From assembly GCA_021513715.1 (NCBI GenBank), contig CP084167.1:658117-722116 (forward strand): a stretch of DNA of 64,000 bases, read 5' to 3'. This document shows positions 28,558 to 58,886 of this stretch, piece after piece (the stretch's first letter is position 1; each line of letters begins with the position of its first letter). The notes under the pieces are model-generated. The model saw nothing but the letters and a program-made list of their open reading frames with translations. It was not told the DNA's origin and searched no databases. Position numbers and translations under genes: made by a program. The stretch comes from Candidatus Heimdallarchaeum endolithica (lineage in GTDB: Archaea > Asgardarchaeota > Heimdallarchaeia > Heimdallarchaeales > Heimdallarchaeaceae).

Positions 28558-29628
28558 ATGATATGGCTTTCTTTATTTTATTCAATTCTCTCCTTGGTAA
28601 TCCTAATTGCTTTTCTTGCAGTTATTATTATAAAACAACTTGAACTTCGATGTACAGCTGTTTATTTTCTAATAATCGTTATTGTTTCAATTATTGGATG
28701 GGTTTTAGGAGATATGTTACAGATAGTTTTTAGTAGTTTGGAAAATAGAGGATTAGTGCTTATATTTTCTCGTTTAGCAACAATAAGTAGTATGATTGCT
28801 ATGATTAGTACAGTTTTATTTGCAAGAGTCTTAACTGCTAGACAAACATTAAACTCTACAACTGTAATTATTGCATTTGTTATGTTTAGTGCTGTTGTTG
28901 CACTAACTTTAAGCTCAAGCTATAGAGTAATTGACCCACCAAAGGAAGTTGAGTTTTATAAAACAGAAGCAGAACTCTTATGGGTTATATTAGACGGAGG
29001 TATGGTGATTTTTGCCGGTTCCATTTTCCTCTACTATCTTGTTAGACAAAGAAAAATAGTACAAAACAAGTATTTACCAGTTTTGACTTTAATGAGCGTG
29101 GGAGTAATCATTGCTTTCTACGTAAGTACCATCCTTTACACAATTTATGCAATATGGTTTATAGTTCCTTTATTGCATTTAGAACTAGTAAGTGCAAGTA
29201 TAGGGGCATTAATTATAGGAATCGCTATGATTAAAGGAGGAAAAGAAGCAATCTATTATTCTTCTAGAGTTTTTTCACTACATATTTTTGATGATGTGGG
29301 AATAAGCTACTATGCTAGTGTATTTCAGTCAGGATATATTGTGGATGAACAACTGATCTCAGGAATAGCCTCTGCGATTATAAGCTTTGCAAAAGAGCTA
29401 GTAGGAAAAGATGTTTTTCCAAGAGAAATAGATTTAGATGACTACTCACTCTTACTAGCTAAAAAAGAGAATACCATAATCCTAATTAGTGTTGAATACC
29501 CAACAGCTCACTTAAGACAAACTATGAACAATATTATTGAAAACTTTAGGATGGATATGAGTGATGATGAAATAGGGGAACTTGTTGAAAATTACATTTG
29601 TTTTGAACCAAGAAAACTAGTGCATTAA
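28558..29628 (+). CDS. Polytopic membrane protein with C-terminal roadblock/LC7-like domain
   Basis: About 7 TM helices, then a C-terminal domain (GISYYASVF...LISGIASAIISFAKELVGK...ILISVEY) that aligns with the C-terminus of the 53976-55976 protein and with MglB-type roadblock domains. Confidence 0.45.
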   Translation: MIWLSLFYSILSLVILIAFLAVIIIKQLELRCTAVYFLIIVIVSIIGWVLGDMLQIVFSSLENRGLVLIFSRLATISSMIAMISTVLFARVLTARQTLNSTTVIIAFVMFSAVVALTLSSSYRVIDPPKEVEFYKTEAELLWVILDGGMVIFAGSIFLYYLVRQRKIVQNKYLPVLTLMSVGVIIAFYVSTILYTIYAIWFIVPLLHLELVSASIGALIIGIAMIKGGKEAIYYSSRVFSLHIFDDVGISYYASVFQSGYIVDEQLISGIASAIISFAKELVGKDVFPREIDLDDYSLLLAKKENTIILISVEYPTAHLRQTMNNIIENFRMDMSDDEIGELVENYICFEPRKLVH

Positions 29629-32802: not shown

Positions 32803-32949
32803 TTTTTTATACTCCTATTTTTTTCTTCTTTTCCGTATCATACACCCGTATTTAAAATTTGTGCAAATTAAAGTTAATAAGTTTAACAATTTTTTTAATA
32901 AAATAATTTATGTTAAATAGTTCAACGATGAAGAAAAATGAGTTTAGGG

Positions 32950-33235
32950 CATACAAAAAGAAAAAATTCATTTCATTTTTTTTAACTCTCTTCCAAATAA
33001 AAATACAGTTAAGATTGTAGCCCCCAAAGCAAGTAAAAACAAATAAATTAAAGTTATTTCGAATGGAGAATTATCCAGAAATTAGCCAAAAGACCAAGGA
33101 AAGACAGCTGCTAATGTGTTGGGTATTGCAAACAAGAAACCAAGTGCTGTTGACCTATTTCCTGATGCACTTCTTCTCTTACATATCTTGTACTTGCTAC
33201 ACTACTAAAGTGTAAAAAGGCTATGAAAGCAAAAT
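32950..33235 (-). pseudogene. C-terminal fragment of an MFS-transporter paralog
   Basis: Minus-strand RSTALGFLFAIPNTLAAVFPWSFG* matches the MFS protein at 35968-37221 (KSRSTALGFLFAIPNTLAAIFPWSFGY); in-frame TAA and an upstream frameshift. Confidence 0.5.
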
Positions 33236-33237
33236 AA

Positions 33238-33660
33238 AATATTATTATTCCACATGTTCGAGAAGGTAAAGGAAAAGGAAAAAGTACTCGTAAGTTTCGC
33301 AGGAAACTTCATCAGTGGAACTTTTCTCTTGTCCTTGCTCTTCTCCGTCGGACACTAATATTAAGAGGTTTTGACCCTCATCGAATATTAACAATAGAAG
33401 AAAGAGGGACATCTTCTCACTGTGCTCGTTACGGGAAGAAAGTTATCCGTCCAGTAAGAGGTTTAGTTCATTGTTCTTCTTGCAATTACACTTTCCACTC
33501 TGACCTCACAGGGGCAATAAATATCGCTCGTAAGTTCCTTGGGGCTCTTTTCCGTCCTCGAGGAACAACTATCACTGATTACCTCACTGGTCAAAGGTTC
33601 AGTTCTACCCATTTCACTGTTTGCCGAGGGCTCAGCCATTGGTTGCAGTCCCAGTAGATG
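33238..33660 (+). pseudogene. 5'-truncated TnpB-like nuclease gene (zinc finger plus RuvC-III)
   Basis: No start codon; translation ...IRPVRGLVHCSSCNYTFHSDLTGAINIARKFLGALFRPRGTTITDYLTGQRF... aligns with the C-terminal ~120 aa of the intact gene at 51095-52609. Confidence 0.65.
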
Positions 33661-33720
33661 AAAAAGGACTTAACTAATTCTATCCTCTTATATTTGAGGT
33701 TTAGTTCTTTCTTTTTTGTC

Positions 33721-33800
33721 TCTCGTGGAGTGAAGAAAGATAGAAAGAAAAACTTTCTTTTCTTCTTTATGATTCCCACGATTCGTGTATGATGTCTGTC
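33721..33800 (+). ncRNA. Degenerate copy of the TnpB-associated structured 3' element
   Basis: CTCGTGGAGTGAAGA...hairpin...CTTTATGATTCCCACGATTC matches 52649-52710; the inner stem differs in sequence but stays complementary. Confidence 0.35.
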
Positions 33801-34017
33801 TCAACTCTTCATAGCATTGTATGACTTGGTTGAGTTCAAGAGATTAAACTTTTACTTGTTTTTTCTCTTGCAAGACAGAGTGCGAAAAACTTTACGTAAA
33901 AAAGTAAATCATGACAAAATACTGCATCTTCTGGTGTTTTTGATCCACATTTTGTACAATATTTCATAAACATTCACCCATATTACTACCATAGTAGTAA
34001 TACTATCTTATATAAAT

Positions 34018-34572
34018 CTATTCAAATCTTTTAGAAGTGAAAGTGAACACATGTTGAATAAAGGATTTGGGGGTGAACCCTCTCCTAAAGTAAAGAATTG
34101 AAAGAAATACTAAACTTAAGAAACCTCCAATTTCATTATAATAGACATAAGGTTGTAAAAGAAACTGAAAGTATGTTTGTGTTTTTGGTTGAAAAGTATA
34201 GTTTACAAAGGGGAAAAACCAAGGAATAAATCCTGCTGTATCTAAAATGATATGCATTATCCAACCCAGAATCAATGCAGAATAAACAGTGGGTTTTTTC
34301 CTGAAAACAACTATGAATAAAATGAACATCAGTATAGCAAATGGAATTGAATGACCAATGTATCTTCCATAACCTGTTATAGGCTCTGAAATGAGTTTAT
34401 CAATAATATCTGGTCCAAGAGCTCCAATTATTAGGGGAATAAAAGCAAAATGAACTATCCCCCAACTATCTGTAGGTTCTAAATTTTTCTTTTTTAGAAG
34501 TAACCAATAATAAAGATGAGCTATAATTTCTGCTGTTAATAATGTGTATCCAATGTGGGCAATTAAGAACAT
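34018..34572 (-). CDS. Membrane-bound metal-dependent hydrolase-like protein (DUF457/YdjM-like)
   Basis: GALGPDIIDK and conserved His residues across TM helices. Confidence 0.45.
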   Translation of the reverse strand: MFLIAHIGYTLLTAEIIAHLYYWLLLKKKNLEPTDSWGIVHFAFIPLIIGALGPDIIDKLISEPITGYGRYIGHSIPFAILMFILFIVVFRKKPTVYSALILGWIMHIILDTAGFIPWFFPFVNYTFQPKTQTYFQFLLQPYVYYNEIGGFLSLVFLSILYFRRGFTPKSFIQHVFTFTSKRFE

Positions 34573-34604
34573 TCAAATCTTTTCTCCGAGTTGAGTTATA
34601 GTTT

Positions 34605-35171
34605 CTATTTTTTTGCTTTATGATGTTTATAAATATTTTTAGTTAATGCATCAAGTAATTGAGTTAACCCTTTACCTGAAATTGCTGAGACTTCAAAGAA
34701 TTCATTGTTAATGTTCTCTCTAGCTGATGTACGGTTTAATCTAAGACAAAAAGCTTGTGCGTCTATAGGATTTAATGTTCTATTTCTTACATTAGGGTTA
34801 TTTCGAAGATCAATTTTATTTCCTACTAGAACTATTGGAATCTTCCCTTTTCTATTGTAATTGATCAATTGCTCTAACCAGAATGTTACTCTTCTAAATG
34901 TCTCTGCTTTTGTAATATCAAAAACTATAAACGCTCCATCAGCTCCTAAATACCATTTAGTTCTTTGAGGAGAGGATAATAGTTCTCTTGCAGGTAAATC
35001 ATAAAGGTCAAAAGCTACTTCTTCTCCTTGTATTGTGCGAAAAACTTTTACAATCTCCGCTTTTAGAGAAGGAACCTTCTCTTTATTTTTTTCATTTTGA
35101 ACTATTTTCTTAAATAAAGTAGTTTTACCTACGCTGTTATCACCTATAAAAAGAATCTTAAATGTGAGCAT
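34605..35171 (-). CDS. Divergent Ras-superfamily small GTPase
   Basis: G1 GDNSVGKTT, G4 GNKIDL, G5 SAISG; G3 is YDLPARE, lacking the Gly and Gln of DxxGQ. Confidence 0.7.
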   Translation of the reverse strand: MLTFKILFIGDNSVGKTTLFKKIVQNEKNKEKVPSLKAEIVKVFRTIQGEEVAFDLYDLPARELLSSPQRTKWYLGADGAFIVFDITKAETFRRVTFWLEQLINYNRKGKIPIVLVGNKIDLRNNPNVRNRTLNPIDAQAFCLRLNRTSARENINNEFFEVSAISGKGLTQLLDALTKNIYKHHKAKK

Positions 35172-35257
35172 TGTTTTTCCTCAGAAACATTCATTTATTA
35201 GTATATACTTAAAAGAATCACTTAAAGTATAAAAAATTAATGTATTAGCTACTTTAC

Positions 35258-35827
35258 TTACTTTTGATTTGATTTATCTCTGATACTTCTTCCAAGAATT
35301 TCAAAGGCTCTATCGATATTTAATCCAGTCTTTGCGCTTGTTTCTAAACAATAATTAATTACACCATACCTCTGTGTACGAAGATTTAGTTCAGTAACAT
35401 ACTTTTGAACTTGTTTGAACTTAACACTCTTTCTATCTCTTAAATCACTTTTATTTGCAAGAACGACAACAGGTACCACTCCTGAACCGTTGAATTTGTA
35501 AAGTTCATTTAACCACATTGGTAGATTTTGAAAAGAAGAAGGACGAGTTATATCAAAGACAAGTAAGGCACCTTGTGCTCCTTTATAAAAACGTGCTCTA
35601 ACTTGCTCAAACATCTGTTGTCCTGCAAGATCCCAAATTTGAAATTTCCACTTCTCATTAGGAATGATTTCTTTGTCTATTGTTGAAAAATCTGCCCCAA
35701 GTGTCATAAGATGACTGGTATTAAATCCGTATCCCATATATTGCATTCTAATAGAAGTTTTTCCTACTGCACCATCACCAATAAGAACGATTTTGAAAAT
35801 AAACAGTTTTTCTGTCATGAAGTTCAA
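35258..35827 (-). CDS. Ras/Rab-like small GTPase
   Basis: G1 GDGAVGKTS, switch I TLGADF, G3 WDLAGQQ, G4 NKSD, G5 ETSAK. Confidence 0.8.
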   Translation of the reverse strand: MNFMTEKLFIFKIVLIGDGAVGKTSIRMQYMGYGFNTSHLMTLGADFSTIDKEIIPNEKWKFQIWDLAGQQMFEQVRARFYKGAQGALLVFDITRPSSFQNLPMWLNELYKFNGSGVVPVVVLANKSDLRDRKSVKFKQVQKYVTELNLRTQRYGVINYCLETSAKTGLNIDRAFEILGRSIRDKSNQK

Positions 35828-35967
35828 CCAATATCTCTGTTAATCTTTTTTTCCTAATATATTCTCCTTATTCCATGTTTAAATTTTTTTATCTAGGAAA
35901 CTTCGTTCAAAAAAAAGTTTAAAAATAACATTTAAAAATAAACATCAAAAAGAGCAGAAGAGAAAGA

Positions 35968-37221
35968 ATGTCGAGGATACATAGTAAAAATCCTATTGCT
36001 TCATTAAGTATTTTGATTTTTGGTCATTTTCTCAACCATTTCTATGCTTATGTGTTTGGTGCAGCAATGTTTGTGATAAGAAATGATATAGTTATGAACA
36101 ATAAACAAATTGGATTATTAGCAACTATTCAAATGGTAGTTTTTGCACTTTGCACTTTTATTGTAGGAGTGTTGGGAGATAAATGGTTAGCAAGTAAAAA
36201 ACTGTTTGTACCCGTAGGTATTTTCTTTATGGCACTACATCTGATAGTTGCATCAATAGCTCAAAGATATATCGTTCTTGCAATTGCAGCAGCGATTGTA
36301 GGTTTTGGTGCTTCTTTTTATCATCCTGTAGCCTATGCAGCAATAGCAGATCTCTATGAAGATAAAAAAGGATTGACTATGGCTCTAAATGCTGCTTTAG
36401 GAATGATTGGAACAGCTCTTACACCAGGAATAATTGCTTCATTTAGCGAGTGGATTGGATGGAGAAAATTCTTTCTATACTTTGGTCTGGGCGCAATAGT
36501 TTTAACTTTTCTAATGTTTATAGGATTTAATAGACTAATAGACTATAGCTTTGAAAAAGAAGAATTAGAACAAATAGAAAAAAGAAGAAATTCAATGACA
36601 ATGAAAGAAAGAATAATCTATTGGCTAAAATTTGAATTTCTAGCTATTCTAACTTTAGCTGTAATAACATGCTTGGCCTATTCTTCGCTTAGATCTGGCT
36701 TATACAAAATAGTGACACAGTTTTTAAGTATTATATTTGTAGATTACTATGATTATAACATATTAAATGCTGGTTGGTTATCATCAGTAATGCTGATAAT
36801 AGGTGGATTAACTGCCATTTTTGGAGGAATATTGAGCGATAAGAAAAATACTCCGTTAACTATGTTTATTTCTTTATTTGGTTCTACAATATCGATTTTG
36901 CTTATTTTTCTATTAGGCAAAAATACAGGAACTTGGGGAATAATAATTCTTTATTTTTCATTTATAGCTTTCTTACACTTCAGTAGTGCTGCAAGTACAA
37001 AATTTGTAACAGAGGAAGTACATCAAAAAAGTAGATCTACAGCTCTCGGTTTCTTGTTTGCGATTCCTAATACACTTGCAGCTATATTTCCTTGGTCATT
37101 TGGATACTTTATGGATAACTCACCGTTTGATATAACACTAATCTATCTGTTCTTCATTGCCTTAGTTGCAACAATGTTAACAATTATATTATTTGCGCGA
37201 GAGCTAAAAAAGAAAAAATAA
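35968..37221 (+). CDS. MFS transporter
   Basis: 12 predicted TM helices in two 6-helix halves. Confidence 0.7.
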   Translation: MSRIHSKNPIASLSILIFGHFLNHFYAYVFGAAMFVIRNDIVMNNKQIGLLATIQMVVFALCTFIVGVLGDKWLASKKLFVPVGIFFMALHLIVASIAQRYIVLAIAAAIVGFGASFYHPVAYAAIADLYEDKKGLTMALNAALGMIGTALTPGIIASFSEWIGWRKFFLYFGLGAIVLTFLMFIGFNRLIDYSFEKEELEQIEKRRNSMTMKERIIYWLKFEFLAILTLAVITCLAYSSLRSGLYKIVTQFLSIIFVDYYDYNILNAGWLSSVMLIIGGLTAIFGGILSDKKNTPLTMFISLFGSTISILLIFLLGKNTGTWGIIILYFSFIAFLHFSSAASTKFVTEEVHQKSRSTALGFLFAIPNTLAAIFPWSFGYFMDNSPFDITLIYLFFIALVATMLTIILFARELKKKK

Positions 37222-43688: not shown

Positions 43689-44627
43689 ATGAATAAGACC
43701 GAACGTAACCTGGAGAAACTAAGAAAAATTGTAGTTAAAAAAGCTTTGGAAGGAGAGAAGATAAAAGAGATAGCTCACAAGTATATGGTGAGTAGGAAGT
43801 TTGTGTATAAGTGGTTGAAGAGGTTCAGAGAGAACCCTGAAGGAGAATGGTGGAAAGATAGATCCTCCAGACCAAAAACTATACACAGGAAAGTGGATGA
43901 GGAGTTAAAAGAGAGGATAAGGGAGTTAAGAATAAAACAAGGAATGAATGTGGAGAAGATAGCTTATTTGTTGAAGAGAGAAGGAAAAGCACTCTCTCAG
44001 ACGACAGTGACGAAAGTAATAAAAGAGTTAGGTCTTCCTTTATGGGTCAATAGAAAAAAGAGGAAGAGACCTCGATACAAGAGTTTTGAACGTCAAAAAC
44101 CTAACGAACTCTGGCAAATAGATGTGAAAGGACCATTCTGGGTAGAAGAACAGGGACAACATCTCCATCTCATAACCTTGATAGACGACCACTCACGATT
44201 CTGTCTGGGAGCTAAATTCCACCCTTTTGCACCAAAAAAAGAGCAGATAATAAATCTACTAGAGGAAGCAATAAAAGAGTACGGTTACCCCGAGTCTATC
44301 CTCACGGACAATGGAGCACTCTTCTCTTCCGTTAGAGGAGGAACAAGTACCTTCTCCCGTTGGTGTCAAACAGAAGGAATAAAACACATCAGAGCTAGAG
44401 TTTTTCACCCCGAAACATGTGGAAAAGTAGAAAGACTACATGGGACAATCATCCGTGAGATGGAAAGATTAGGTCTAAAATACTGCAACCCCGACCTCTC
44501 CTACTACCGCTCTTACTACAATTTTAGTCGTCCTCACCAATCTCTTAACTTCCTCACCCCAGGAGAAAGATTTATGAATCACCCCTATGTTTCTCTAGTA
44601 CCCAAAAGTGTAACCCAAGTCTATTGA
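43689..44627 (+). CDS. IS481-family-like transposase (HTH plus rve integrase core, DDE)
   Basis: N-terminal HTH; WQIDVKGPF...LIDDHSR...LTDNGALF...HPETCGKVER; GC content higher than flanking DNA. Confidence 0.75.
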   Translation: MNKTERNLEKLRKIVVKKALEGEKIKEIAHKYMVSRKFVYKWLKRFRENPEGEWWKDRSSRPKTIHRKVDEELKERIRELRIKQGMNVEKIAYLLKREGKALSQTTVTKVIKELGLPLWVNRKKRKRPRYKSFERQKPNELWQIDVKGPFWVEEQGQHLHLITLIDDHSRFCLGAKFHPFAPKKEQIINLLEEAIKEYGYPESILTDNGALFSSVRGGTSTFSRWCQTEGIKHIRARVFHPETCGKVERLHGTIIREMERLGLKYCNPDLSYYRSYYNFSRPHQSLNFLTPGERFMNHPYVSLVPKSVTQVY

Positions 44628-48460: not shown

Positions 48461-49464
48461 AAGCATGTCCAAAAATTAATTTTTATTAATGTGGGGGTTT
48501 ATGTCGGAAGTATGAATTTCTTTCAGATCATAGACCCCCACAAAGCAAGAGAATTCATAATCATTAATGAACCTTTCCTTAAGAAACTGGTGAAAGAGGA
48601 ACCGAGAGAAAGCAAGAGAGGGAGAAAGAGAATAGCAGAAAGATGGGTGATACTGGCTTTAGCAATCATTGCTAGAATAGAAGGGATAGCTTGGAGGAAG
48701 TTAGAGGAAAAGTTGTCTTTATGCGATTTTTTGATAGAAGAGGGGTGGATGAAGAAGATTCCTTCTAAATCTACTTTTCATGCAGTGTGGAGAGCGACAG
48801 AAAGTAAAATCTTAGAGCAGTGGATAATAGATTTAGGTAGGGAAATAGTGAGGAAAAAAGGCTTGAAAGCTATGGCAGTGGATAGTTCAGGGTTTAAAAT
48901 CCGTCAAGCTTCTGTTTGGCGTTTTCTCAAATGGTCAAGAGGGACACTAAAGAAAACCTCTAAACTTTTCTGGAAGATACACCTTATAGTTGGTTTACCC
49001 TCTCGAGCTATAGTCTCTCTCGCTCATTCTGCTAGTAACACTCACGATAGTAAAGTCTTCGGTTTACTCTGGCAGAAACTTCCTTCTGCACTCTTGAGAC
49101 CTTTCTTGCGATTTTATGGAGACTGTGCCTACTGGACAGAAAATATCGTTGGACTTCTTAGCCAACATTCCTTTTTCCCTGTTATTCCCCCAAAAAGTAA
49201 TGCTCGTTATCCCTCTCCTCCTCCCCTCGGACCAATAGTTCAAGCTCATCGTCTCTACCCTGGTCTGTATCGTCGTAATCATCATCCCGAGTATCGTAGT
49301 AGTATTGAACACGTCTTTGGTCTCCTTAAACTCTCTCTTCCCCCAATCCTTGATCGTTTACCCTCCACCATCCTCTCTACCTTGTACAGTTCTCTTCTCT
49401 GTTACAACTACCTTTTACTCCTTCGGACCGTTTAGTTGGTGAAAAAGAATTTTTGGACATGCTT
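48461..49464 (+). mobile_element. IS4/IS5-family-like insertion sequence (1004 bp) with perfect 17-bp terminal inverted repeats
   Basis: Left IR AAGCATGTCCAAAAATT at 48461-48477; right IR is its exact reverse complement at 49448-49464; flanked by direct repeat TAGTAT at 48455-48460 and 49465-49470. Confidence 0.8.
48491..49435 (+). CDS. DDE transposase (IS4/IS5-like)
   Basis: AVDSSGF, YGDCAY and IEHVFG...K motifs; the ATG at 48512 may be the true start. Confidence 0.75.
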   Translation: MGVYVGSMNFFQIIDPHKAREFIIINEPFLKKLVKEEPRESKRGRKRIAERWVILALAIIARIEGIAWRKLEEKLSLCDFLIEEGWMKKIPSKSTFHAVWRATESKILEQWIIDLGREIVRKKGLKAMAVDSSGFKIRQASVWRFLKWSRGTLKKTSKLFWKIHLIVGLPSRAIVSLAHSASNTHDSKVFGLLWQKLPSALLRPFLRFYGDCAYWTENIVGLLSQHSFFPVIPPKSNARYPSPPPLGPIVQAHRLYPGLYRRNHHPEYRSSIEHVFGLLKLSLPPILDRLPSTILSTLYSSLLCYNYLLLLRTV

Positions 49465-49491: not shown

Positions 49492-50838
49492 ATGACTCCA
49501 AAAGATTCTAAAAAACCTTCAGAACTAGAAAAAGCTATTTTAGAAGCAAAAGCAAAGTTACAAAATGTAGTTGCTAAAAAAGAAGGTAAATATATAAGAA
49601 AAACAGAGCTAGAGAATGCTATAAATGAAGCGTTAAAAAGCTTAAAGCCTGTTTCTGAAGAATTAATAAAGAAGAAAATAAAAACCAGTTCATTTAAAGA
49701 TGAACTAGTAAAGGCAAAGTCAGAACTAAAGCAAGTAAAACAAGAAAAAAAGAGAGTTACAAAAAACGATATGGAATTAGCTATTAAAGAAGCTATTAAA
49801 AATCTAAAACCATTAACTGAAAAAGGGAAAAAGCAAGTTTCTTCAAAAGGAGAATTAGAATTAGCTATTTTAGATGCTTTTTCAAAGCTAATTGAAGTTT
49901 CAGATGAACAGAAAAATTATGCTTTAACAAAGAAAGAACTAAAAATTATAATTAAGGATGCTAAAAATAGATTAAAGAAAGTACCAGAAAAAGAACTCAA
50001 ACATGCATTAACAAAGAAAGAACTAGAGCACGAGCTGAGAGACTTAAAAGGAAAACTAAAACCAGTCCCAGAACAAGTAAAAGTACCAGAACTTTCGATT
50101 AAACAACTTAGAACTGCCATTAAAGAAGCAAAAGTAAGATTAAAACCTGTTCCAGAGAATTTAAAGAGTATAAGTTCTATCTCAGTTGGTAGATCAATAA
50201 AAAAAGAAGGAGAAAAAATAAAAAGGAAACTATTGCCTATTCCAGGAGATGCTAAAACTTTCGAAATTCAGAACATAGAGCACATTAAACTCTTTTCTGC
50301 AGAAAGGTTGGATTTTAATAAATTCATTTCAAAACTAGAAAAACAAAAACAACAACCACTGCGTAAAATAATAATTAATCCAAAAACAAAGTTTTGTAAA
50401 ATAGAGTTAATGAACAAAGATAACCCTAATTCTCCGTATAACATTACAGGAGGAGGAGATATTTTAGAATTCACTTCAACTTACCGTTTCTTGTTTAAAC
50501 ATGGGTATATAAAAATAGAGAATAACTATCCCTTACTCTTTTCAGATAAACAATGGATTGTCTGGTATTTAAGAGAAAAAATAGAATTAACTTTCGTGGA
50601 CATAGCTTTTGCAATGAATGAAACAGTTAGAAACGTTAGAAACCTGTTTAATGAAGCTGAAAAAAGAATAAATCAAATATTAGATTTTGTTGTAGATGAA
50701 GAGCATTACCAATTAGTAGCAGCACATGCAATGAAAAGAAAAGGAGTACGTATCCAACAGATTGGAGATACTATAATTGAGCCTAAAATTACAGAAAAAT
50801 ATCTCATTGAACAACAACAACTAGAAGAATTAACTTAA
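49492..50838 (+). CDS. Lysine-rich repeat protein with C-terminal HTH-like segment
   Basis: At least six repeats of EL..AI.EA...LKPV in the N-terminal 250 aa; C-terminal LTFVDIAFAMNETVRNVRNLFNEAEKRI resembles a sigma-region-4/LuxR-type HTH. Confidence 0.45.
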   Translation: MTPKDSKKPSELEKAILEAKAKLQNVVAKKEGKYIRKTELENAINEALKSLKPVSEELIKKKIKTSSFKDELVKAKSELKQVKQEKKRVTKNDMELAIKEAIKNLKPLTEKGKKQVSSKGELELAILDAFSKLIEVSDEQKNYALTKKELKIIIKDAKNRLKKVPEKELKHALTKKELEHELRDLKGKLKPVPEQVKVPELSIKQLRTAIKEAKVRLKPVPENLKSISSISVGRSIKKEGEKIKRKLLPIPGDAKTFEIQNIEHIKLFSAERLDFNKFISKLEKQKQQPLRKIIINPKTKFCKIELMNKDNPNSPYNITGGGDILEFTSTYRFLFKHGYIKIENNYPLLFSDKQWIVWYLREKIELTFVDIAFAMNETVRNVRNLFNEAEKRINQILDFVVDEEHYQLVAAHAMKRKGVRIQQIGDTIIEPKITEKYLIEQQQLEELT

Positions 50839-51094
50839 ATTGAAGAACTTGAAAAGAAAGTAGAAATACCAAGAGAGTGGGTTATAAAAACAGCTTATAA
50901 AATAGAAACTCTGGAAGGAGGTTATTATCTATGGAAAGAGTTTCTAGGAGCATTAAACAAGGATTCTCTACTGATGATAGAAAACGACAGTTTACCCCAT
51001 GAAAAAATTTTTTGTATAAATTCTTTAGGTTTTTAAATAAATTGCTTAATTAATAAATAGAGAAAAGAAAGTGAAGAAGAAAAAGGATTAGAAA

Positions 51095-52609
51095 ATGGAG
51101 AAAATAGTGAGAACATTAAGAGTAAGAGTAAAAACAGAAAAATTAACGAAGTTCAAAAAAGATAGAATGAGAAAGATAACAGGAAGAGATACTAGAATAA
51201 TAGAAGAATATGTAAAAATAATAAGAAAAGAAGAAGAAAAAGTAATAAGAAAAATAAGCAAACAAGGAGAGATAAGACTAAAAGTGCATAAAGGCAAGTT
51301 AGATGAACTAACACTAACAACAACAAAGAAAACAAATAAGAAAAAAAGGACAGTTGTACCCTATGATCTCAAAAAAAAGTTTCCTAATTGTTCTCACGAT
51401 GAATTTCAAGAGTGTAGAGATGTAGCAGTACAACTTTATGAACAAGGATATAACAAAAAAAAGAACAAAAAAAGAAAAAAAGGATATATTTTACCACCAG
51501 TAAAACGAGCAAGAAAACAACTAATCAATAAAAATAGATTTATCATAAAACATTTGCCTAAAGGGAAAAACACTCTTTCTCGTTGGTGGGTAGGGATAAG
51601 AGACTCATTAGACACACAAAAAAGAAAAAAACGAACACATCGAAGACTATGGATACCACTAGAAATGAGTGAATATCACCAAAAAGAAATAAGAAAAGGA
51701 CAAGTAAAAAGTCTAGAATTAAAATATAACTCACAAAAAAACAGTTGGTGGGTAAATTTTCAGATAACAATTATTCCTCAAGCAGATCTCTACAAGAAAA
51801 AAAAAGTTGACTCTTCTCTTCTTCCTCCAGCTGTGCTGGGAATAGATCTGGGAGAAAAAATACCTGGAGCAGGAGTGTTATTAACATCAACAGGTAAAAT
51901 ATCTCCCAATCATATTTTCTTCTGGAAAATGAAAGAATGGAAAAAAAGGAAGTATATCTATCAACAGAAAATAAGAAGATTGCAACGAAAACTTGCAAAA
52001 AAGAAGAATACATGTAAAGACAAAAGAAGCAATAAAGGATATCAAACATTAAAAAAATTAAGAAAAAGATATCAGACGCTCTCTCATGCTTATTTATATG
52101 CTTTTATCAATGAGTTGTGGAAAGATATTGTTGAACTTACACAGGATTATAATTTAGTCGTTGTTGTTGGTTACCCCAAGGGAGTACACTCGAAATTAAG
52201 AAAAAAAGTAATGAATCAAGACTACAGACCACAGAACTCTTCTACTCGTTTTACTCGTAAAAAGGTTCACCCGTGGAATTACTACCAAATAGTTACTCTT
52301 CTTCGACGAATGTGTCTTCTAAATGGGTTAGAACCCGAACGTATCCTCACCTTACAGGAATATCTTACCTCTTCTCTTTGCTCAAAATGTGGACGAAAGA
52401 CTATTCGACCTGTTAGAGGTCTTGTTTATTGTTCTCATTGTCATTATACTCTTCACTCTGACCTTACCGGTGCAATCAACATCGGGAAATTGTTTCTTCG
52501 TTTTCTTTTTCGCCCCCGAGCATCTACACTAGTTGATTATCTTACTGGACAACACTTTAGTCTCACCTTTTATACTTCCTTCAGGGGTCTCAACCAGTGG
52601 TTGAAATAG
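51095..52609 (+). CDS. tnpB: TnpB-like RuvC nuclease (IS200/IS605 OrfB, Cas12/Fanzor-related)
   Basis: RuvC-I LGIDLG, RuvC-II region around FINELW, zinc finger CSKCG...CSHCH, RuvC-III HSDLTGAINIG; lysine/arginine-rich N-terminal half. Confidence 0.8.
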   Translation: MEKIVRTLRVRVKTEKLTKFKKDRMRKITGRDTRIIEEYVKIIRKEEEKVIRKISKQGEIRLKVHKGKLDELTLTTTKKTNKKKRTVVPYDLKKKFPNCSHDEFQECRDVAVQLYEQGYNKKKNKKRKKGYILPPVKRARKQLINKNRFIIKHLPKGKNTLSRWWVGIRDSLDTQKRKKRTHRRLWIPLEMSEYHQKEIRKGQVKSLELKYNSQKNSWWVNFQITIIPQADLYKKKKVDSSLLPPAVLGIDLGEKIPGAGVLLTSTGKISPNHIFFWKMKEWKKRKYIYQQKIRRLQRKLAKKKNTCKDKRSNKGYQTLKKLRKRYQTLSHAYLYAFINELWKDIVELTQDYNLVVVVGYPKGVHSKLRKKVMNQDYRPQNSSTRFTRKKVHPWNYYQIVTLLRRMCLLNGLEPERILTLQEYLTSSLCSKCGRKTIRPVRGLVYCSHCHYTLHSDLTGAINIGKLFLRFLFRPRASTLVDYLTGQHFSLTFYTSFRGLNQWLK

Positions 52610-52775
52610 ACCTATGTACTATTATACCATAATGGTAGAATACTTAGTACTCGTGGAGTGAAGAGTTCTACTCTTCTTTATGCGTCCCACGATTCCTAGA
52701 TGATGTCAGTATGCTCAAACATCTGTTTCAGCGTTTGTATTCTTCCACTGACGTAGTAGGAGAAAATTGTACAAA
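52610..52775 (+). ncRNA. Candidate TnpB-associated guide-RNA scaffold (omega-RNA/reRNA-like) and element right end
   Basis: Immediately after the tnpB stop: near-palindrome TACCATAATGGTA (52625-52638), nested stems CGTGG...GAAGAG-loop-CTCTTC...CCACG (52649-52700), ending near palindromic TTGTACAA (52767-52774); core conserved with compensatory changes at 33721-33800. Confidence 0.4.
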
Positions 52776-53849
52776 AAATTAACTCATGAAGAAGAATACT
52801 TGATAAACGCTATAGGATTAGGAGGAGAAATAATACCTGACATCAAGAGCAATTTCAAAAAACTAATTGAAATATTCGCAGAAGCTCCTGACGATCTTGT
52901 AAAAATAGGAGATACAGCCTTTTTCATGGGTTATATGGATAATATTTATTCTAGCCAGTTTTGGACAATAAAAAACTTCGTTAAAGGAAACAAAAAAAAT
53001 TGGAAAAAAGATTTTATAAAAATAGCAATAAAAGCATATTCAAAAGCTCTAGATAATATTATTCCATCAGTTAACCCAGTAAAGTACGGTTTGCTAATAA
53101 ACGATTTAGGAGTATTTTACTTATTTCTGTCAGAATTAGAGCAAACTAAAAAACACACTATAGAAGCAATCAAAAATTTACTTGATGCAAAAAAAGCATT
53201 ACCTTTAGAGTTCTTTAAAACAAAACATAGTGATATTTGTTATAATTTAGGACTGGCTCATTTATTTTTGTCTAAAATAGAAGAAAAAGAAGAAAATATT
53301 AAACAAGCTATTCTAAACTTTAACGTTGCTCTGCAAGGAAGAACGTTAAGAATGTATCCATTGAAACATGCTATAACACAAGTCAATCTAGGAATTGTCT
53401 ACCAAAAATTAGCTGAAATCGAAGAAACCTCTTTAAATTGTACATTAAGTATAGAATCTTATAACAATGCTTTGAGATCCAACACTCTAGACGTCATGCC
53501 AACAGAAGCAGCGATGATATATAACAACATAGGTCTATCTTATTGCACTTTATCTGATGTACAGGAAACAGAATACAATATTTCACAAGCTTTAATTGTT
53601 TTAAATGATGCTTTGACCATCAGAAATGAAGCACAGTTTCCTGTTGAATATGCAATTACAACAAGTATTTTAGGAAAAGCTTATACAATTCTAGCAACAG
53701 TAAAAGAAAAAAAAGAATATTATGAAAAGGCAATATCAGCATTTAATAAAACAATTAAGATATTCATCAAGAAATATGAAGACTTCTACCAAGCAATAAT
53801 ACAAGAAAAAGAAAAAGTAGAAGAGAAACTAAAAGAAATAGCGCAATAA
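52767..53849 (+). CDS. TPR-like helical repeat protein
   Basis: Recurrent (N/Y)N(L/I)G..Y..L...E pattern every ~40 aa; start ambiguous (TTG at 52767, TTG at 52800 or a downstream ATG). Confidence 0.5.
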   Translation: MYKKLTHEEEYLINAIGLGGEIIPDIKSNFKKLIEIFAEAPDDLVKIGDTAFFMGYMDNIYSSQFWTIKNFVKGNKKNWKKDFIKIAIKAYSKALDNIIPSVNPVKYGLLINDLGVFYLFLSELEQTKKHTIEAIKNLLDAKKALPLEFFKTKHSDICYNLGLAHLFLSKIEEKEENIKQAILNFNVALQGRTLRMYPLKHAITQVNLGIVYQKLAEIEETSLNCTLSIESYNNALRSNTLDVMPTEAAMIYNNIGLSYCTLSDVQETEYNISQALIVLNDALTIRNEAQFPVEYAITTSILGKAYTILATVKEKKEYYEKAISAFNKTIKIFIKKYEDFYQAIIQEKEKVEEKLKEIAQ

Positions 53850-53975: not shown

Positions 53976-55976
53976 ATGAAAAGTTTTTTACCAAAATTTG
54001 TTCTCAATGAAATTGATATATATTTAGAAGATTCTCAAAAGACTATTTTAGAAGAGAAAATAGAAAATATTGTTAGTAATGTTTCAGATTATGATTCAAT
54101 TGCTAAAGATGTTACTTCTTTTCTTTTAGAAATGGATATCAGTGATTTAACAATATATGACAAAATGCTTGTAATTACTTCTGTACTATTGAATTATTGG
54201 AAAAAAGATTATTCTTTTATTTTAAAAATTTATGAGAAGTTTCATTCTACAGACTTACCACTCAGTGTAAAAATTTGTTTTCTTCTAATTTTCCAAGAAT
54301 CTTTTGATTTAGACAATTTTAACTTTTGGAGAGAGGAAATAGAGGAACATATAGAAAATATAACTAATACTGCTGAAAAAGAATTTCTTAGCACTGCTAT
54401 TGAACAATTTGCTTCTAAGCTTGAGCAGAGACCCGAGGTTGGTTATCGTTCAATGAACCAGCTTATTCGTTCTCTTGAGGAGAATGAGCAAATCTCTTAT
54501 CAGTATCCTTTTGTTTTTGAAGCTTTAGAGCTTGAACTTATTCAGTATTCTAACATTTTAGCTGATGAAGTTTTTTCTGAAATCTGGGTAGAATCTGCTA
54601 GAAGAAGAGCTGAAGTAATGGAAAACTATGGTATGTTAGTTCAAGTCAACAGCCTTATTGCTAGTATTTTAGTTAAAGAGTATCATCTAGAAAAAGCTAA
54701 AGAAAAGATTGAAGAAGGGTTGGAGATCGCTAAGAAGATCAATTCACCTATTTTAGCTGCTCAGATTGAATTAAGCAATGCTTTACTATTGAAAATGGAA
54801 GGTAAATTGAATGAAGCTTTAAAGCTGTATGAAGAAATAGCCAAAGTCAAGAATCTTCCTCAAACTTTTCAATTGGATATTTATAGCAAAATAGGTGAGA
54901 TTTATCTTAACAAAGATGAGATAATTAAGGCTGAAGAATACTATCTTAAAGCTCACAAGATTAATAAGAAACTTAATTATTTCAATCCTCTTGTTGAAAT
55001 AGTTATAGGTTACATAAATTTGCTTTTGGAGAAAGATGAAGGAGAAGCTTTAGACAAAGGGCTGAAAATAGCAGAGGAACAGTTTGATTTTTCTTCAATC
55101 CCTTACTACTATTTTTACAAGGGTATTTATGAACAACAAAGGGTCAATCTGACCTTATCTATCGAATATCTTGAAAAAGCATTAAACTCTTTTGAGCACC
55201 AAAAGAACTTTGAAGGTATTGTTTATACTAATGGTGCATTAGCAGAGTCTTATCTTCAAATTTACAAACTCCTTCATGATGACAAATATTCTTCTCAATT
55301 TCTTTACTATATTGACAACCTTATTGAAATATTAAAGGAATTAAACAATCCTCTATATGTTGAAGCTATAAAGACTAAAGCTGGTTATTATTTGGATAAA
55401 GGTTTAATTAAAAATGCTGAAGATTTATTTATTGATGGAATAGAATTTGCTAAAATTCGCAGGTTAAAAGAGGAAGAAGAAGAATTAAAGGAATCACTTA
55501 CTAATAAAAAGAATTTATCGAAAATAACTTTAGAAGGAACACAAATTCTCTTTAGGAAAATCAGAATGTTTAGTTTTGGCAAACATAAAACTGTACCTAC
55601 TAAATTATACTTACTTTTAGTAATAAATGAAGCAGGTATTCCTCTTATTTCTCACTCATTTACTGAAGAGGAAATGATAGATAAGGTATTAGTTTCAGGT
55701 CTAATTTCAGCTATAATTAACTTTTCTTCTGAAGTTTTAGGAAAAGGAGAAGAAACACTGAGATCTATTAATCATGAAGGAAAAGCAGTTATTGTCGAAA
55801 AAAGAGGAAATGTGATGGGTATTTTAGTTGCTGAAGATGAAAATTTTGAGATGAGACTTGAACTTAGACAATTTCTACAGAGAGCTTTAGATAAACTGGT
55901 TTCTGAGCAACCTATTGTTAGAGAAAACGATAGTGAAATAATATCTATTATAGAAGAGGTTTTTGAGAAAAAATAA
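53976..55976 (+). CDS. TPR-like repeat protein with C-terminal roadblock/LC7-like domain
   Basis: Helical repeat body; last ~110 aa (LYLLLVINEAGIPLISH...LVSGLISAIINFSSEVLGKG...MGILVAEDEN) align with MglB/roadblock-type domains and with the C-terminus of the 28558-29628 protein. Confidence 0.5.
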   Translation: MKSFLPKFVLNEIDIYLEDSQKTILEEKIENIVSNVSDYDSIAKDVTSFLLEMDISDLTIYDKMLVITSVLLNYWKKDYSFILKIYEKFHSTDLPLSVKICFLLIFQESFDLDNFNFWREEIEEHIENITNTAEKEFLSTAIEQFASKLEQRPEVGYRSMNQLIRSLEENEQISYQYPFVFEALELELIQYSNILADEVFSEIWVESARRRAEVMENYGMLVQVNSLIASILVKEYHLEKAKEKIEEGLEIAKKINSPILAAQIELSNALLLKMEGKLNEALKLYEEIAKVKNLPQTFQLDIYSKIGEIYLNKDEIIKAEEYYLKAHKINKKLNYFNPLVEIVIGYINLLLEKDEGEALDKGLKIAEEQFDFSSIPYYYFYKGIYEQQRVNLTLSIEYLEKALNSFEHQKNFEGIVYTNGALAESYLQIYKLLHDDKYSSQFLYYIDNLIEILKELNNPLYVEAIKTKAGYYLDKGLIKNAEDLFIDGIEFAKIRRLKEEEEELKESLTNKKNLSKITLEGTQILFRKIRMFSFGKHKTVPTKLYLLLVINEAGIPLISHSFTEEEMIDKVLVSGLISAIINFSSEVLGKGEETLRSINHEGKAVIVEKRGNVMGILVAEDENFEMRLELRQFLQRALDKLVSEQPIVRENDSEIISIIEEVFEKK

Positions 55977-55982
55977 ATGAAA

Positions 55983-57953
55983 TTATGAAACTAGTGGTCT
56001 AATTTGGTATTTTAGACCTATAATTTTCATTATATCCACAGCATCTTCAATTGTGTTTGCTGATATTTCTAGTTCCTCAATAATTTGGTCTATATAGAGT
56101 ATTTCTACTGTACTCATTTTTTCTGTTTCAGGGAGAAGTCTTTCTAAAGCATTGTGATTGTTAATATCTAACTCATGTTCTATAGCATGTACATCGTTAA
56201 ATATTGGATGAGAAGCAAGAGGTTGAATACACACAACTTCCAAAACTTCTACTGATTTGTCAATTAAATCACAAAGTAAATCACACTCTTTTATCAAGTA
56301 TTGAGAAAAATAGTCATCTATTTTCTTTCTGGGAATGTATAGAATCTTTCTTAGAGAGCGCAAGATATAACCTATAGCTTTATCGAGTGTAGTAGTAAGT
56401 TTATAGAAATGGTAATCATCAGGAGCAGGTCTAACACTACTATACATTACCTGGGTGACTTTAAAAACAAGGTCATCAGCAAGCCTTTCCTCTTTTTTTG
56501 CTGCCATCATGAGTTTAATTGCTTGTTCTTTATCGCCATCCAAATATCTCTTAAATGATTGAGCTAACAAATGTATTGTTTTTTGAACTTTCTCTGCATG
56601 CTTTATAGAATGAGAGGCTTGTACCCATCCAGGTCTGGTTTCTATAGCTAAGATAGAAAAAGAAAAACCAAGAATGATTAATAGAGTTCCTGCAAACAAG
56701 AATGGAAATTTGAAAACATTACTGACTAAACTATCGCCTAAAAATTGTAGAACATCAATATTTACAACAAGACCAGCCAAACCAAGAACAATTAAAGGTC
56801 CAGTAAAGTAACCAGAATCTAAAGACGATCGATAAATACCTATACTTTTTTCTCTTTTTATTATAGGAACAACATCTTTTGTAATACTTGGAAGTGAAGG
56901 ATAATAAAGAGATGTTCCTAGTCCAGCAAGTAAAGTTAATAATACTACAACTCCAAAAAGGTCAGTAAAAACGATTAATATAATGCTTGTTCCTGCTAAT
57001 AAAAAACCAAGAATCATTGGTGTTTTTCTTCCTATTCTATCACTCAATTTTCCAGTAAAAGGCATCGTAGTTGACCAAGCTAAAGTAAAAACTGAAGTAG
57101 CTATTCCTATCTGGACATTAGAAAAACCATAAACAGTTGATAATAGTAGAGGAAAAATCAAAACCAGAATACTGTCAGTAATTCTAGATATGTGACCTCC
57201 TAAATTAGCCAATATTAAAGTTGGTACTCTAAAAATATTTTTTGTACTCCATCGACTTTCGACTTTTGTAGCGTCTAAAAGTACTGAATCTTTTGTTCCT
57301 GCAACTAAATCAGTTGTTTCTACTTTCTTAATAAATATGAAACCAAAAGCTAGAGCAATTCCTGCAATTATTAAAGCAAAAATAAAAGTCTCTGCAAACC
57401 CCAGGTTATTTGCTATTACACCTGCTAAGAAAGAACCAAGACTTGAACCTAAATAAACAGAGAATTCCATTGAACCAACAGAAAAAGCTGCTCCTTCATA
57501 TCCTGCTATATCAGTAAGAGCTGACATTGTAGAAGTAAAGAGTAAACCTAATCCTCCTCCAATAAATGCATTTCCAAGGGGTAAGGCCCACAAGTTTCTT
57601 GAAAAAGCTAAAGCAAAAGATCCACAAAGTACTAAAATCAATCCAATCCTAATTGTCCACTTTCGTTGATATTTACTACTTATTGTAGCACTAAAGAAAC
57701 CAGCTATTCCTTTAAAAAGCCCATAAGCTATAACTGCTGAGGAAATTTGGAGGAAAACAATGAAACTTCTTTGAAAATTTTCTTGTGATTCAAATAGAGG
57801 AAAATTTGTAAATGATTCTCCAAAAAGAGATAGTGAAGTTCTTTGTACTCCATAAGCAATACCAGCAAAAAGTAAAACTGTAATAATTGGTCCCCATTTA
57901 GAAATACTGCGTAAGAATGAGAAAGATTCTAGCTTTTTTTCTTTTAGTTCCAT
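55983..57953 (-). CDS. MFS transporter fused to a cytoplasmic PhoU/DUF47-like helical domain
   Basis: About 12 TM helices followed by ~230 aa of helical cytoplasmic domain. Start taken at ATG 57953 (MELKEKK) rather than track start 58118. Confidence 0.55.
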   Translation of the reverse strand: MELKEKKLESFSFLRSISKWGPIITVLLFAGIAYGVQRTSLSLFGESFTNFPLFESQENFQRSFIVFLQISSAVIAYGLFKGIAGFFSATISSKYQRKWTIRIGLILVLCGSFALAFSRNLWALPLGNAFIGGGLGLLFTSTMSALTDIAGYEGAAFSVGSMEFSVYLGSSLGSFLAGVIANNLGFAETFIFALIIAGIALAFGFIFIKKVETTDLVAGTKDSVLLDATKVESRWSTKNIFRVPTLILANLGGHISRITDSILVLIFPLLLSTVYGFSNVQIGIATSVFTLAWSTTMPFTGKLSDRIGRKTPMILGFLLAGTSIILIVFTDLFGVVVLLTLLAGLGTSLYYPSLPSITKDVVPIIKREKSIGIYRSSLDSGYFTGPLIVLGLAGLVVNIDVLQFLGDSLVSNVFKFPFLFAGTLLIILGFSFSILAIETRPGWVQASHSIKHAEKVQKTIHLLAQSFKRYLDGDKEQAIKLMMAAKKEERLADDLVFKVTQVMYSSVRPAPDDYHFYKLTTTLDKAIGYILRSLRKILYIPRKKIDDYFSQYLIKECDLLCDLIDKSVEVLEVVCIQPLASHPIFNDVHAIEHELDINNHNALERLLPETEKMSTVEILYIDQIIEELEISANTIEDAVDIMKIIGLKYQIRPLVS

Positions 57954-58058
57954 AAAATTATTCAGGAAAAATGAATAATAAAGGTTGTTATTTGAATTAA
58001 ATAAAGTACACAATATTACAATAAATTTAAATTTACCCAAGAGTTTGCCAAACAGAAA

Positions 58059-58886
58059 ATGATTAAACAAAAGAAGAAAAAAGACTATTTTGTGAGAAAA
58101 TTCTCTCTTAGCAGACAAATTCTGGCTGATTATAATGATGTTGCAGCTACTTTTCCTAGAGTTAGAGGGCAGTTAGAATATGACATAACAAACGCAAAAA
58201 GAAGAATAGAAGAAATAAAAAAAATAGATAAGTATGATGTTTCTTACACTGCTTGGATTGCAAAATGTATTAGCAGAGCAGTAAAGGAAGATTTAAGGTT
58301 TAATTCCTATAGAAAAGGTAGAAAGATAATCGTTTTCAAAACTGTAGATATTAGTATAATCGTAGAGATTACAACTAAAGAAGGAAAAAAAGTACCTTTT
58401 AATTATGTTATTAGAGACGTAGAAAATAAGAGTGTAAAAGAAATTACAGAAGAAATTCGTGCAGTACAAAAAAGAAAAATAGAAGAAACTGAACAACTAA
58501 CAAGAGATAGTTCAAGTAATTTTTCTTCTCTCTACTTGTTGATTCCACGCTTTATAAGAAAAATGGTAATTAAATCAATATTGAAAAACCCATTTAAACT
58601 AAGAAAACTAATAGGAACTGTAGGAATAACTTCTTTAGGGATGTTTGTTCAAAATTTTGCAGGATGGGCGATTCCTTTTGCTGATAAGACCTTAAATGTA
58701 GCAGTTGGAGGCATGAAGAATTCTGTAGAACTAGTAGAAGGAGAATTAAAAGAAAAAACACTACTGTGTGTAACCTTTCTTGTTGATCATAATCTTATAG
58801 ATGGAGCCCCAATAGCTAGATTTGTTGCTAGGGTGGGAAATTTAATGAAAGATGCTTCTTTTCTTGAAGATATAAATAAACCCTAA
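58059..58886 (+). CDS. Stand-alone 2-oxoacid-dehydrogenase E2-type acyltransferase catalytic-domain protein
   Basis: C-terminal VDHNLIDGAPIARF matches the DHRxxDG active-site motif of E2/CAT-fold acyltransferases; no lipoyl domain. Confidence 0.5.
   Translation: MIKQKKKKDYFVRKFSLSRQILADYNDVAATFPRVRGQLEYDITNAKRRIEEIKKIDKYDVSYTAWIAKCISRAVKEDLRFNSYRKGRKIIVFKTVDISIIVEITTKEGKKVPFNYVIRDVENKSVKEITEEIRAVQKRKIEETEQLTRDSSSNFSSLYLLIPRFIRKMVIKSILKNPFKLRKLIGTVGITSLGMFVQNFAGWAIPFADKTLNVAVGGMKNSVELVEGELKEKTLLCVTFLVDHNLIDGAPIARFVARVGNLMKDASFLEDINKP

Follow-up and report, generated by a model that had tools for sequence, protein, structure and literature searches.

A predicted longin domain shared by a seven-helix membrane protein and a TPR protein of Candidatus Heimdallarchaeum endolithica

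Background

A 64,000-nucleotide stretch of Candidatus Heimdallarchaeum endolithica, whose genome is closed and measures 3.33 Mb (contig CP084167.1, positions 658,117 to 722,116 of the forward strand; hereafter the window, 30.5 % G+C) encodes two otherwise unrelated proteins whose C-termini resemble each other, a 666-amino-acid (aa) protein with tetratricopeptide repeats (TPR) and a 356-aa membrane protein with seven predicted transmembrane (TM) helices (7TM). This raises the question of which domain the two proteins share and what it does at the end of two such different scaffolds. We find that the two C-termini are homologous, far beyond chance, and that the shared domain, on predicted structural models, is a true longin of about 115 aa with the order b-b-a-b-b-b-a-a (b, strand; a, helix) and not a roadblock/MglB domain. 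The two genes are referred to below as TPR-longin and 7TM-longin.

Longin and roadblock proteins dimerize, and small GTPases bind to the dimers. The two folds form one superfamily (PMC10933270), their dimers act as GTPase platforms and are numerous in Asgard genomes (PMC10933270; bioRxiv 10.1101/2020.10.19.343400), and 130 orthologous groups of the superfamily are described in Asgard archaea (bioRxiv 10.1101/2020.10.19.343400; PMC10933270; PMC11188069; PMC12290439). These archaea possess many Rab-, Arf- and Rag-like GTPases, for which the pairing with regulators, and the access of unlipidated members to membranes, are largely unknown.

Homology of the two C-termini

The TPR-longin gene (53976..55976, + strand) encodes a protein identical to UJG44128.1, named 'MalT-like TPR region domain-containing protein' in UniRef, with an N-terminal helical region, MalT-like TPR (~aa 205-500), a linker and the C-terminal longin. 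The ORF (open reading frame) of the 7TM-longin gene (28558..29628, + strand), modelled at full length with AlphaFold2, encodes a seven-helix TM module (aa 2-233; 28561..29256, + strand), in which a short beta-hairpin separates TM4 from TM5, followed by its own longin. In a BLASTP comparison, residues 542-627 of the TPR protein aligned with residues 236-320 of the membrane protein (26 % identity, 59 % positives, E 2e-6), and phmmer, run with each domain in turn on the full set of 259 stop-to-stop ORFs of the window (at least 50 aa), returned the other copy as the sole match (E 3.7e-8 and 7.2e-8). As a control for circularity we utilized two profiles lacking any window sequence, one built from TPR-longin C-termini of other Heimdall genomes and one from homologs of the membrane protein. 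The former detected the C-terminus of the membrane protein (E 1.9e-9) and the latter that of the TPR protein (E 1.9e-22), while hhalign of the TPR-longin against the 7TM-longin profile gave a probability of 98.9 % (E 1.9e-17). No third copy was found in the window using the family profile, the next best match having an E-value of 0.3.

These results confirm the original prediction for this locus, made from the sequence, in so far as it proposed a common C-terminal domain on two ORFs, one membrane-tethered and one TPR-tethered; both ORFs were found, their 7TM and TPR modules are supported, and the motifs it had pointed to (GIP/GIS, L[VI]SG[LI].SAII.F and GK) are present in the BLASTP alignment. 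Its coordinates were nearly right. They contain the longins, the structured parts of which lie at 55605..55967 in the TPR protein (aa 544-664, + strand, from the AlphaFold2 model) and at 29269..29598 in the membrane protein (aa 238-347, + strand, from the model and the cross-profile matches); positions 55540-55604, which had been counted as domain, fall in a basic/hydrophobic linker ahead of the longin (TQILFRKIRMFSFGKHKTVPTK; 55539..55604, + strand). The linker is conserved in the ortholog alignment and is predicted as a short helix of low confidence (predicted local distance difference test, pLDDT, 59-70 in the longin-domain model).

Predicted fold of the shared domain

An AlphaFold2 model of the TPR-protein domain, made with an alignment of diverse family members as input, reached a pLDDT of 86.3 and a predicted TM-score (pTM) of 0.78, and the full-length model of the 356-aa protein a pLDDT of 83.2 and a pTM of 0.77. 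Both models show the order b-b-a-b-b-b-a-a, in the membrane protein over aa 238-347, with a five-stranded sheet held between helix a1 and helices a2/a3. The elements in the TPR protein are b1 (aa 544-551), b2 (556-561), a1 (570-588), b3 (597-600), b4 (603-610), b5 (613-619), a2 (624-641) and a3 (653-664). Structure comparison gave close matches to solved longin domains, the nearest being the TRAPP core longins (Trs23, Bet5, TRAPPC4) and Mon1. Longins and roadblocks are intermixed in the Foldseek results when ordered by E-value, and the best TM-scores (0.62-0.70) belong to TRAPPC1/Bet5.

Sequence profiles point in the same direction. When 50 diverse domain segments of the family were scanned singly against Pfam, the commonest match was Fuz_longin_1 (PF19036), the first longin of Fuzzy, Mon1 and HPS1, found in 21 of the 50 at E ≤ 1 and in seven at E ≤ 1e-3 (best 2.8e-9), with Sybindin and Intu_longin_1 each matching six members at E ≤ 1. 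The family profile, searched against all PDB sequences, placed human MON1A first (E 0.022) and TRAPP Bet5 next, and in the PDB sequence search for the membrane protein Trs23 was the second kind of match; a PDB search using a shallow 9-sequence alignment returned spurious matches only (ribosomal P0 and designed proteins). The MON1A alignment contains common motifs in the first hairpin (G-x-P-x-Y-S), the first helix (G..A..SF) and the third strand ((L/I)RSI.(H/A).G). On sequence profiles the closest match of the family is the first longin (LD1) of Mon1/Fuzzy/HPS1. It is because of the topology, the structure ranking and the Pfam matches that we assign the modelled domain to the longins and not to the roadblocks.

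A large family of Asgard longins

When 1.84 billion representative proteins were searched exhaustively with the profile, 579 representatives of the longin family were identified at E ≤ 1e-3, versus 5, 2 and 10 proteins in word-indexed homolog searches. Among the best 150 representatives the domain is C-terminal in 62 long soluble proteins, in 34 polytopic membrane proteins (17 with 4-8 predicted helices and 17 with nine or more) and in 19 others of 210-450 aa; a further 24 are short, and 11 have an N-terminal domain. Organism names are attached to 14 of the 20 clusters looked up, and all 14 are Asgard (Heimdallarchaeota/-aceae, Hodarchaeales, Promethearchaeota/Lokiarchaeia and Thorarchaeota). 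The family is thus large and, as far as its members are named, exclusive to Asgard archaea. The longin is a portable C-terminal module in this family, and in the window it occurs once after a GPCR-like bundle (GPCR, G-protein-coupled receptor) and once after a MalT-type TPR solenoid. Public records leave it unannotated, the proteins being listed as hypothetical or as TPR proteins.

In the N-terminal-longin type (P0050, P0133, P0147, P0085, P0144, P0152) the longin is followed by two winged-helix modules, and P0147, annotated by JGI as a MarR-type regulator, adds a V4R (Bet3-like) domain. Members of this type of 400-430 aa were considered as tri-longin proteins and rejected, no further longins being detected in them.

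The seven-helix module and the TPR module

The 356-aa protein has no Pfam or NCBIfam match at E ≤ 10, save a spurious NCBIfam match of a C-terminal fragment to the VapB antitoxin (E 0.13). Lysine and arginine are concentrated in the odd-numbered loops (1, 3, 5) and in the segment following TM7, and the N-terminus is therefore predicted to lie outside and the longin, which in the model begins 4 residues past TM7, inside. The model is a seven-helix bundle in the GPCR arrangement with this predicted N-out/C-in orientation. No GPCR signature or profile match was found in Pfam or NCBIfam, and a profile search gave a marginal match to rhodopsin of cattle (E 0.05), which pairs the TM6-TM7 regions of both proteins and in which NPxxY is not conserved. 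We describe the module as GPCR-like in its predicted fold and do not claim homology to GPCRs, which is not established, because the model is a prediction, seven-helix bundles look alike and no GPCR motif is conserved. Within the longin family this 7TM module is limited to a group of ~360-aa proteins.

The ortholog of 7TM-longin in a related Heimdallarchaeaceae metagenome-assembled genome (L001, 9470-10538) differs from the window gene by three 1-nt indels, corresponding to window positions 28588/9, 28707/8 and 29081/2, and is called as two ORFs of 146 and 178 aa in contigs from three samples. Either this gene is a pseudogene or the assemblies contain a systematic error.

The matches of the 666-aa protein to TPR_2 (24.5 bits) and TPR_MalT (20.4 bits) are weak, lie at aa 237-335 and fall under the Pfam cut-offs. 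Its MalT-like TPR are recognized by way of its paralogs and of its ortholog profile, which matches solved TPR proteins in a PDB profile search. These paralogs, termed p1 and p2, pass TPR_12 (52.7 and 54.9 bits), and p2 also passes TPR_MalT (45.4 vs 45).

The paralogs were found by a locus scan of one genome per species with close TPR-longin orthologs as query, which returned 14 TPR-longin loci from genomes named Heimdallarchaeota and, in one case, Promethearchaeati. Thirteen of these loci (L006-L018) come from outside the genus Heimdallarchaeum, and in them the ortholog of the window gene, p3, stands last in a same-strand tandem array, p1-p2-p3, whose three genes are all visible in ten loci and of which two or one are seen in the other three. 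The genes are separated by tens of bases or overlap (e.g. L010, 5726-11998). The window protein shares 41-45 % identity with its array orthologs over the full length, and the array paralogs, of ~680, 700 and 675 aa, share just 21-25 % with one another. Such a tandem array of paralogs fits hetero-oligomers formed by longin pairing.

Proposed function and its alternatives

We favour, with moderate confidence, a role of the longin as a portable module that pairs into a platform binding and switching small GTPases of the Ras superfamily, acting more like a guanine nucleotide exchange factor (GEF) than a GTPase-activating protein (GAP). By analogy with known longins we infer that the domain would pair with another longin, as a homo- or heterodimer, that this dimer would form the surface on which the GTPase is bound and switched, and that the N-terminal module would set its place (at the membrane, for 7TM) or its partners (those bound by TPR). 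A GEF-like activity is the more likely direction because the nearest relatives, Mon1, Fuzzy and TRAPP Trs23/Bet5, are catalytic longins of Rab GEFs, and because features of GAP longins are not evident. The latter (FLCN, NPRL2 and SMCR8 type) have an adjacent G-P in the b1-b2 loop and an arginine finger (PMC12290439), whereas the motif of the family reads G-x-P, with a residue between the two, and an arginine conserved across its members is not evident.

Several observations weigh against a GTPase platform. Not one of the 14 TPR-longin loci contains a small GTPase gene within ±10 kb, and GTPase genes lie near some 7TM-longin loci and are absent at others, with no operon structure; the distant 7TM-longin loci form two pairs, of which one lies 6 kb from an unrelated GTPase and the other has no GTPase nearby. 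The block in the window that includes the GTPases (MFS-GTPase-GTPase-YdjM, 32803-37221) is inverted in the related genome L001, where the three frameshifts in the 7TM-longin ortholog also raise the possibility of a dispensable gene. A single longin is present in each protein, versus three in Mon1-type GEF subunits, and taken singly the window sequences fall under the Fuz_longin_1 cut-off, one domain scoring 14.9 bits (E 0.031) against 26.1 and the other giving no match. Every structural statement, finally, is derived from predicted models.

The two GTPases of the window are encoded in tandem, a Ras-superfamily protein of 188 aa (34605..35171, - strand; Pfam Ras 92 bits) and a Rab-like protein of 189 aa with canonical G motifs (35258..35827, - strand; Pfam Ras 139 bits). 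The former has DLPAR in place of DxxGQ and therefore lacks the catalytic glutamine. Both end in short basic tails and neither in cysteine, so that prenylation motifs of the CAAX/CC type are lacking at their C-termini. One way in which unprenylated GTPases could plausibly reach the membrane is by means of a membrane-fixed partner, and 7TM-longin could plausibly serve Cys-less GTPases in this way. We mention these genes as context only. The original prediction had the two scaffolds recruiting the window's own GTPases, and for this we found no contextual support, with no conserved linkage at the loci of either gene; in GTPase-rich genomes a longin and a GTPase gene are expected to lie close by chance occasionally. 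The result is in line with the published observation that Asgard GTPase genes are generally outside operons with roadblock or longin genes (PMC10933270).

The principal rival, which we regard as possible and less probable than a GTPase-switching role, is that the longin is a pure assembly module with no GTPase client, pairing the TPR-longin paralogs, and perhaps the membrane copy, into hetero-oligomeric scaffolds. Longins serve assembly in SNAREs and in adaptor sigma/mu subunits, and conservation in the family is highest on helix a1 and strand b3, through which domains of this fold usually pair. The p1-p2-p3 arrays suggest co-assembly and fit both readings, and the lack of a conserved GTPase neighbour also favours assembly alone. 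The best sequence and structure matches are however to GEF longins (Mon1/Fuz, TRAPP) and not to SNARE or adaptor longins, and Asgard genomes are rich in small GTPases without assigned regulators (PMC10933270), both of which argue against assembly alone.

Should the longin indeed switch GTPases, a more specific and rather speculative proposal is that 7TM-longin is a receptor and exchange factor in one chain, in which a GPCR-like sensor in the archaeal membrane would present a Mon1/TRAPP-type longin to the cytoplasm, and the longin would recruit non-lipidated Rab-like GTPases to the membrane and activate them there. On this view the TPR-longin paralogs would serve either as soluble partners or as interchangeable halves of the dimer. 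A stronger form of this doubtful proposal would make the Asgard family the archaeal source of the LD1 found in eukaryotic tri-longin Rab GEFs (Mon1-Ccz1, Fuzzy-Inturned, BLOC-3).

We consider it improbable that the domain is a small-molecule sensor of GAF/PAS/profilin type, reporting a ligand to the TPR or 7TM module. Both modules are typical of sensory proteins, and the longin fold is regarded as a relative of the GAF fold (De Franceschi 2014, cited in PMC11513930); no GAF, PAS or profilin structure is among the top 60 structure-comparison matches.

Still less credible is a Roadblock/LC7/MglB-type domain, the MglB/roadblock fold of the original prediction, which would make the two proteins GAP or GEF platforms like bacterial MglB. 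LAMTOR subunits are among the top Foldseek matches and Robl_LC7 (PF03259) matches five of the 50 scanned members at E ≤ 1 (best 0.0026), yet none at E ≤ 1e-3. A roadblock begins with a helix and has no a3 (order a-b-b-a-b-b-b), whereas TM7 leads directly into b1 in the modelled membrane protein, b1 of the TPR protein is preceded by the low-confidence linker, and both predicted domains lack the N-terminal helix and have two C-terminal helices, a2 and a3. Solved longins align over 109-123 residues and roadblocks over 94-102 with lower scores, with MglB at 11.3 and solved Asgard roadblocks at 9.5-11.2 falling below the longins. The Pfam and structure-prediction comparisons proposed with the original prediction thus speak for the longin and against Robl_LC7 and the roadblock. 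That the similarity between the two C-termini is an effect of chance or of composition in an AT-rich genome, as identity of just 26 % across 86 residues at 30.5 % G+C might suggest, is refuted since the window-free cross-profiles and both structure models agree, and 579 homologs exist.

Surroundings of the two loci

The neighbour of TPR-longin is a convergent gene for an MFS transporter fused to PhoU_div (DUF47; 55983..58118, - strand, from Pfam), which is present in nine of the 14 related TPR-longin loci as well as in the window. The arrays are flanked by this MFS-PhoU_div gene, an Eco57I-like methylase gene and a gene for a 626-aa protein. In the two Heimdallarchaeum genomes p1 and p2 are missing at the locus, and an unrelated 856-aa TPR gene lies upstream. 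Ca. Heimdallarchaeum aukensis has an unbroken copy of that gene (856 aa), whereas in the window (49492-53849) it is split by an insertion of ~1.75 kb (about 51034-52778), with a target sequence of ~40 nt matching on both sides. The insertion contains a TnpB/Cas12f-like ORF (51095-52609; Pfam Cas12f1-like_TNB, OrfB_IS605), and the N-terminal half of the split gene ends early, at 50838. The 360-aa TPR ORF upstream was considered as a TPR-longin paralog and ruled out, being the C-terminal half of this gene split by an insertion sequence. The interval from a P-type ATPase gene to the split TPR gene contains two more transposase genes (43689-44627 and 48491-49435; an rve integrase with a helix-turn-helix, and DDE_Tnp_1), which makes this a region rich in mobile elements. 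A further TPR_MalT protein of 595 aa with the same longin is encoded ~9 kb downstream of TPR-longin on the opposite strand, just past the window end (~65.1 kb, - strand; L004, 12343-13218; L005, 21480-21998).

The neighbours of 7TM-longin in close relatives are Dak2, a membrane protein of 430-440 aa, VKOR and an H+-pyrophosphatase. Beyond close relatives we found no conserved partner gene beside 7TM-longin, and the distant loci have no common neighbours. In the window the membrane protein is of 441 aa (27089-28414), has no Pfam match and lies directly upstream on the same strand with a gap of 144 nt; its position is kept in L001 and not in more distant loci. The breakpoint of the inversion relative to L001 coincides with a 1.2-kb stretch of the window (32803-34017) that has no ORF of at least 65 aa and no Rfam match, and Rfam gave no match anywhere in the window. 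Among the scanned small ORFs of the window there is no roadblock gene.

Comparison with known systems

In Mon1, Fuzzy and HPS1 (LD1, PF19036) each subunit has three longins, whereas the window proteins have one, placed C-terminal to TPR or 7TM and under the Pfam cut-off. Neither window protein shows the three consecutive longins of a tri-longin Rab GEF, the rest of each being TPR or 7TM. The TRAPP longins Trs23/TRAPPC4 and Bet5/TRAPPC1 (Sybindin) are small stand-alone subunits that assemble with Bet3-family proteins, whereas those of the window are fused to larger modules. No V4R/Bet3 match was found among the part of the window ORFs that was scanned, and none was seen beside either longin gene. 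A distant member of the longin family is fused to V4R. Eukaryotic 7TM proteins act on GTPase regulators in several settings, GPCRs being GEFs for G-alpha and LYCHOS/GPR155 acting on the longin-containing GATOR1. These couple separate proteins, whereas 7TM-longin is a covalent fusion whose likeness to them is at the level of a predicted fold.

Longins that resemble the catalytic longins of Mon1-Ccz1 and TRAPP, carried on polytopic and TPR scaffolds, are candidate membrane-fixed GEF platforms. We found no published description of the family, of the 7TM-longin fusion or of the TPR-longin arrays in the open-access literature, and this Mon1/TRAPP-like family appears to be new, as do its fusions to a GPCR-like 7TM bundle and to further polytopic modules and the arrays of three TPR-longin genes. 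Should the link to GTPases fail, the results still provide a corrected annotation and an example of known Asgard longin shuffling. The Asgard catalogue includes longin-GTPase fusions, NPRL2-like longins on two-component modules, a Vps28-adaptin-longin and GAP longins of the FLCN/SMCR8 type (bioRxiv 10.1101/2020.10.19.343400; PMC11188069; PMC12290439; PMC10933270). The proteins described here belong with these catalogued multidomain longins, in which the same phylum-wide expansion and shuffling has placed the longin on many modules.

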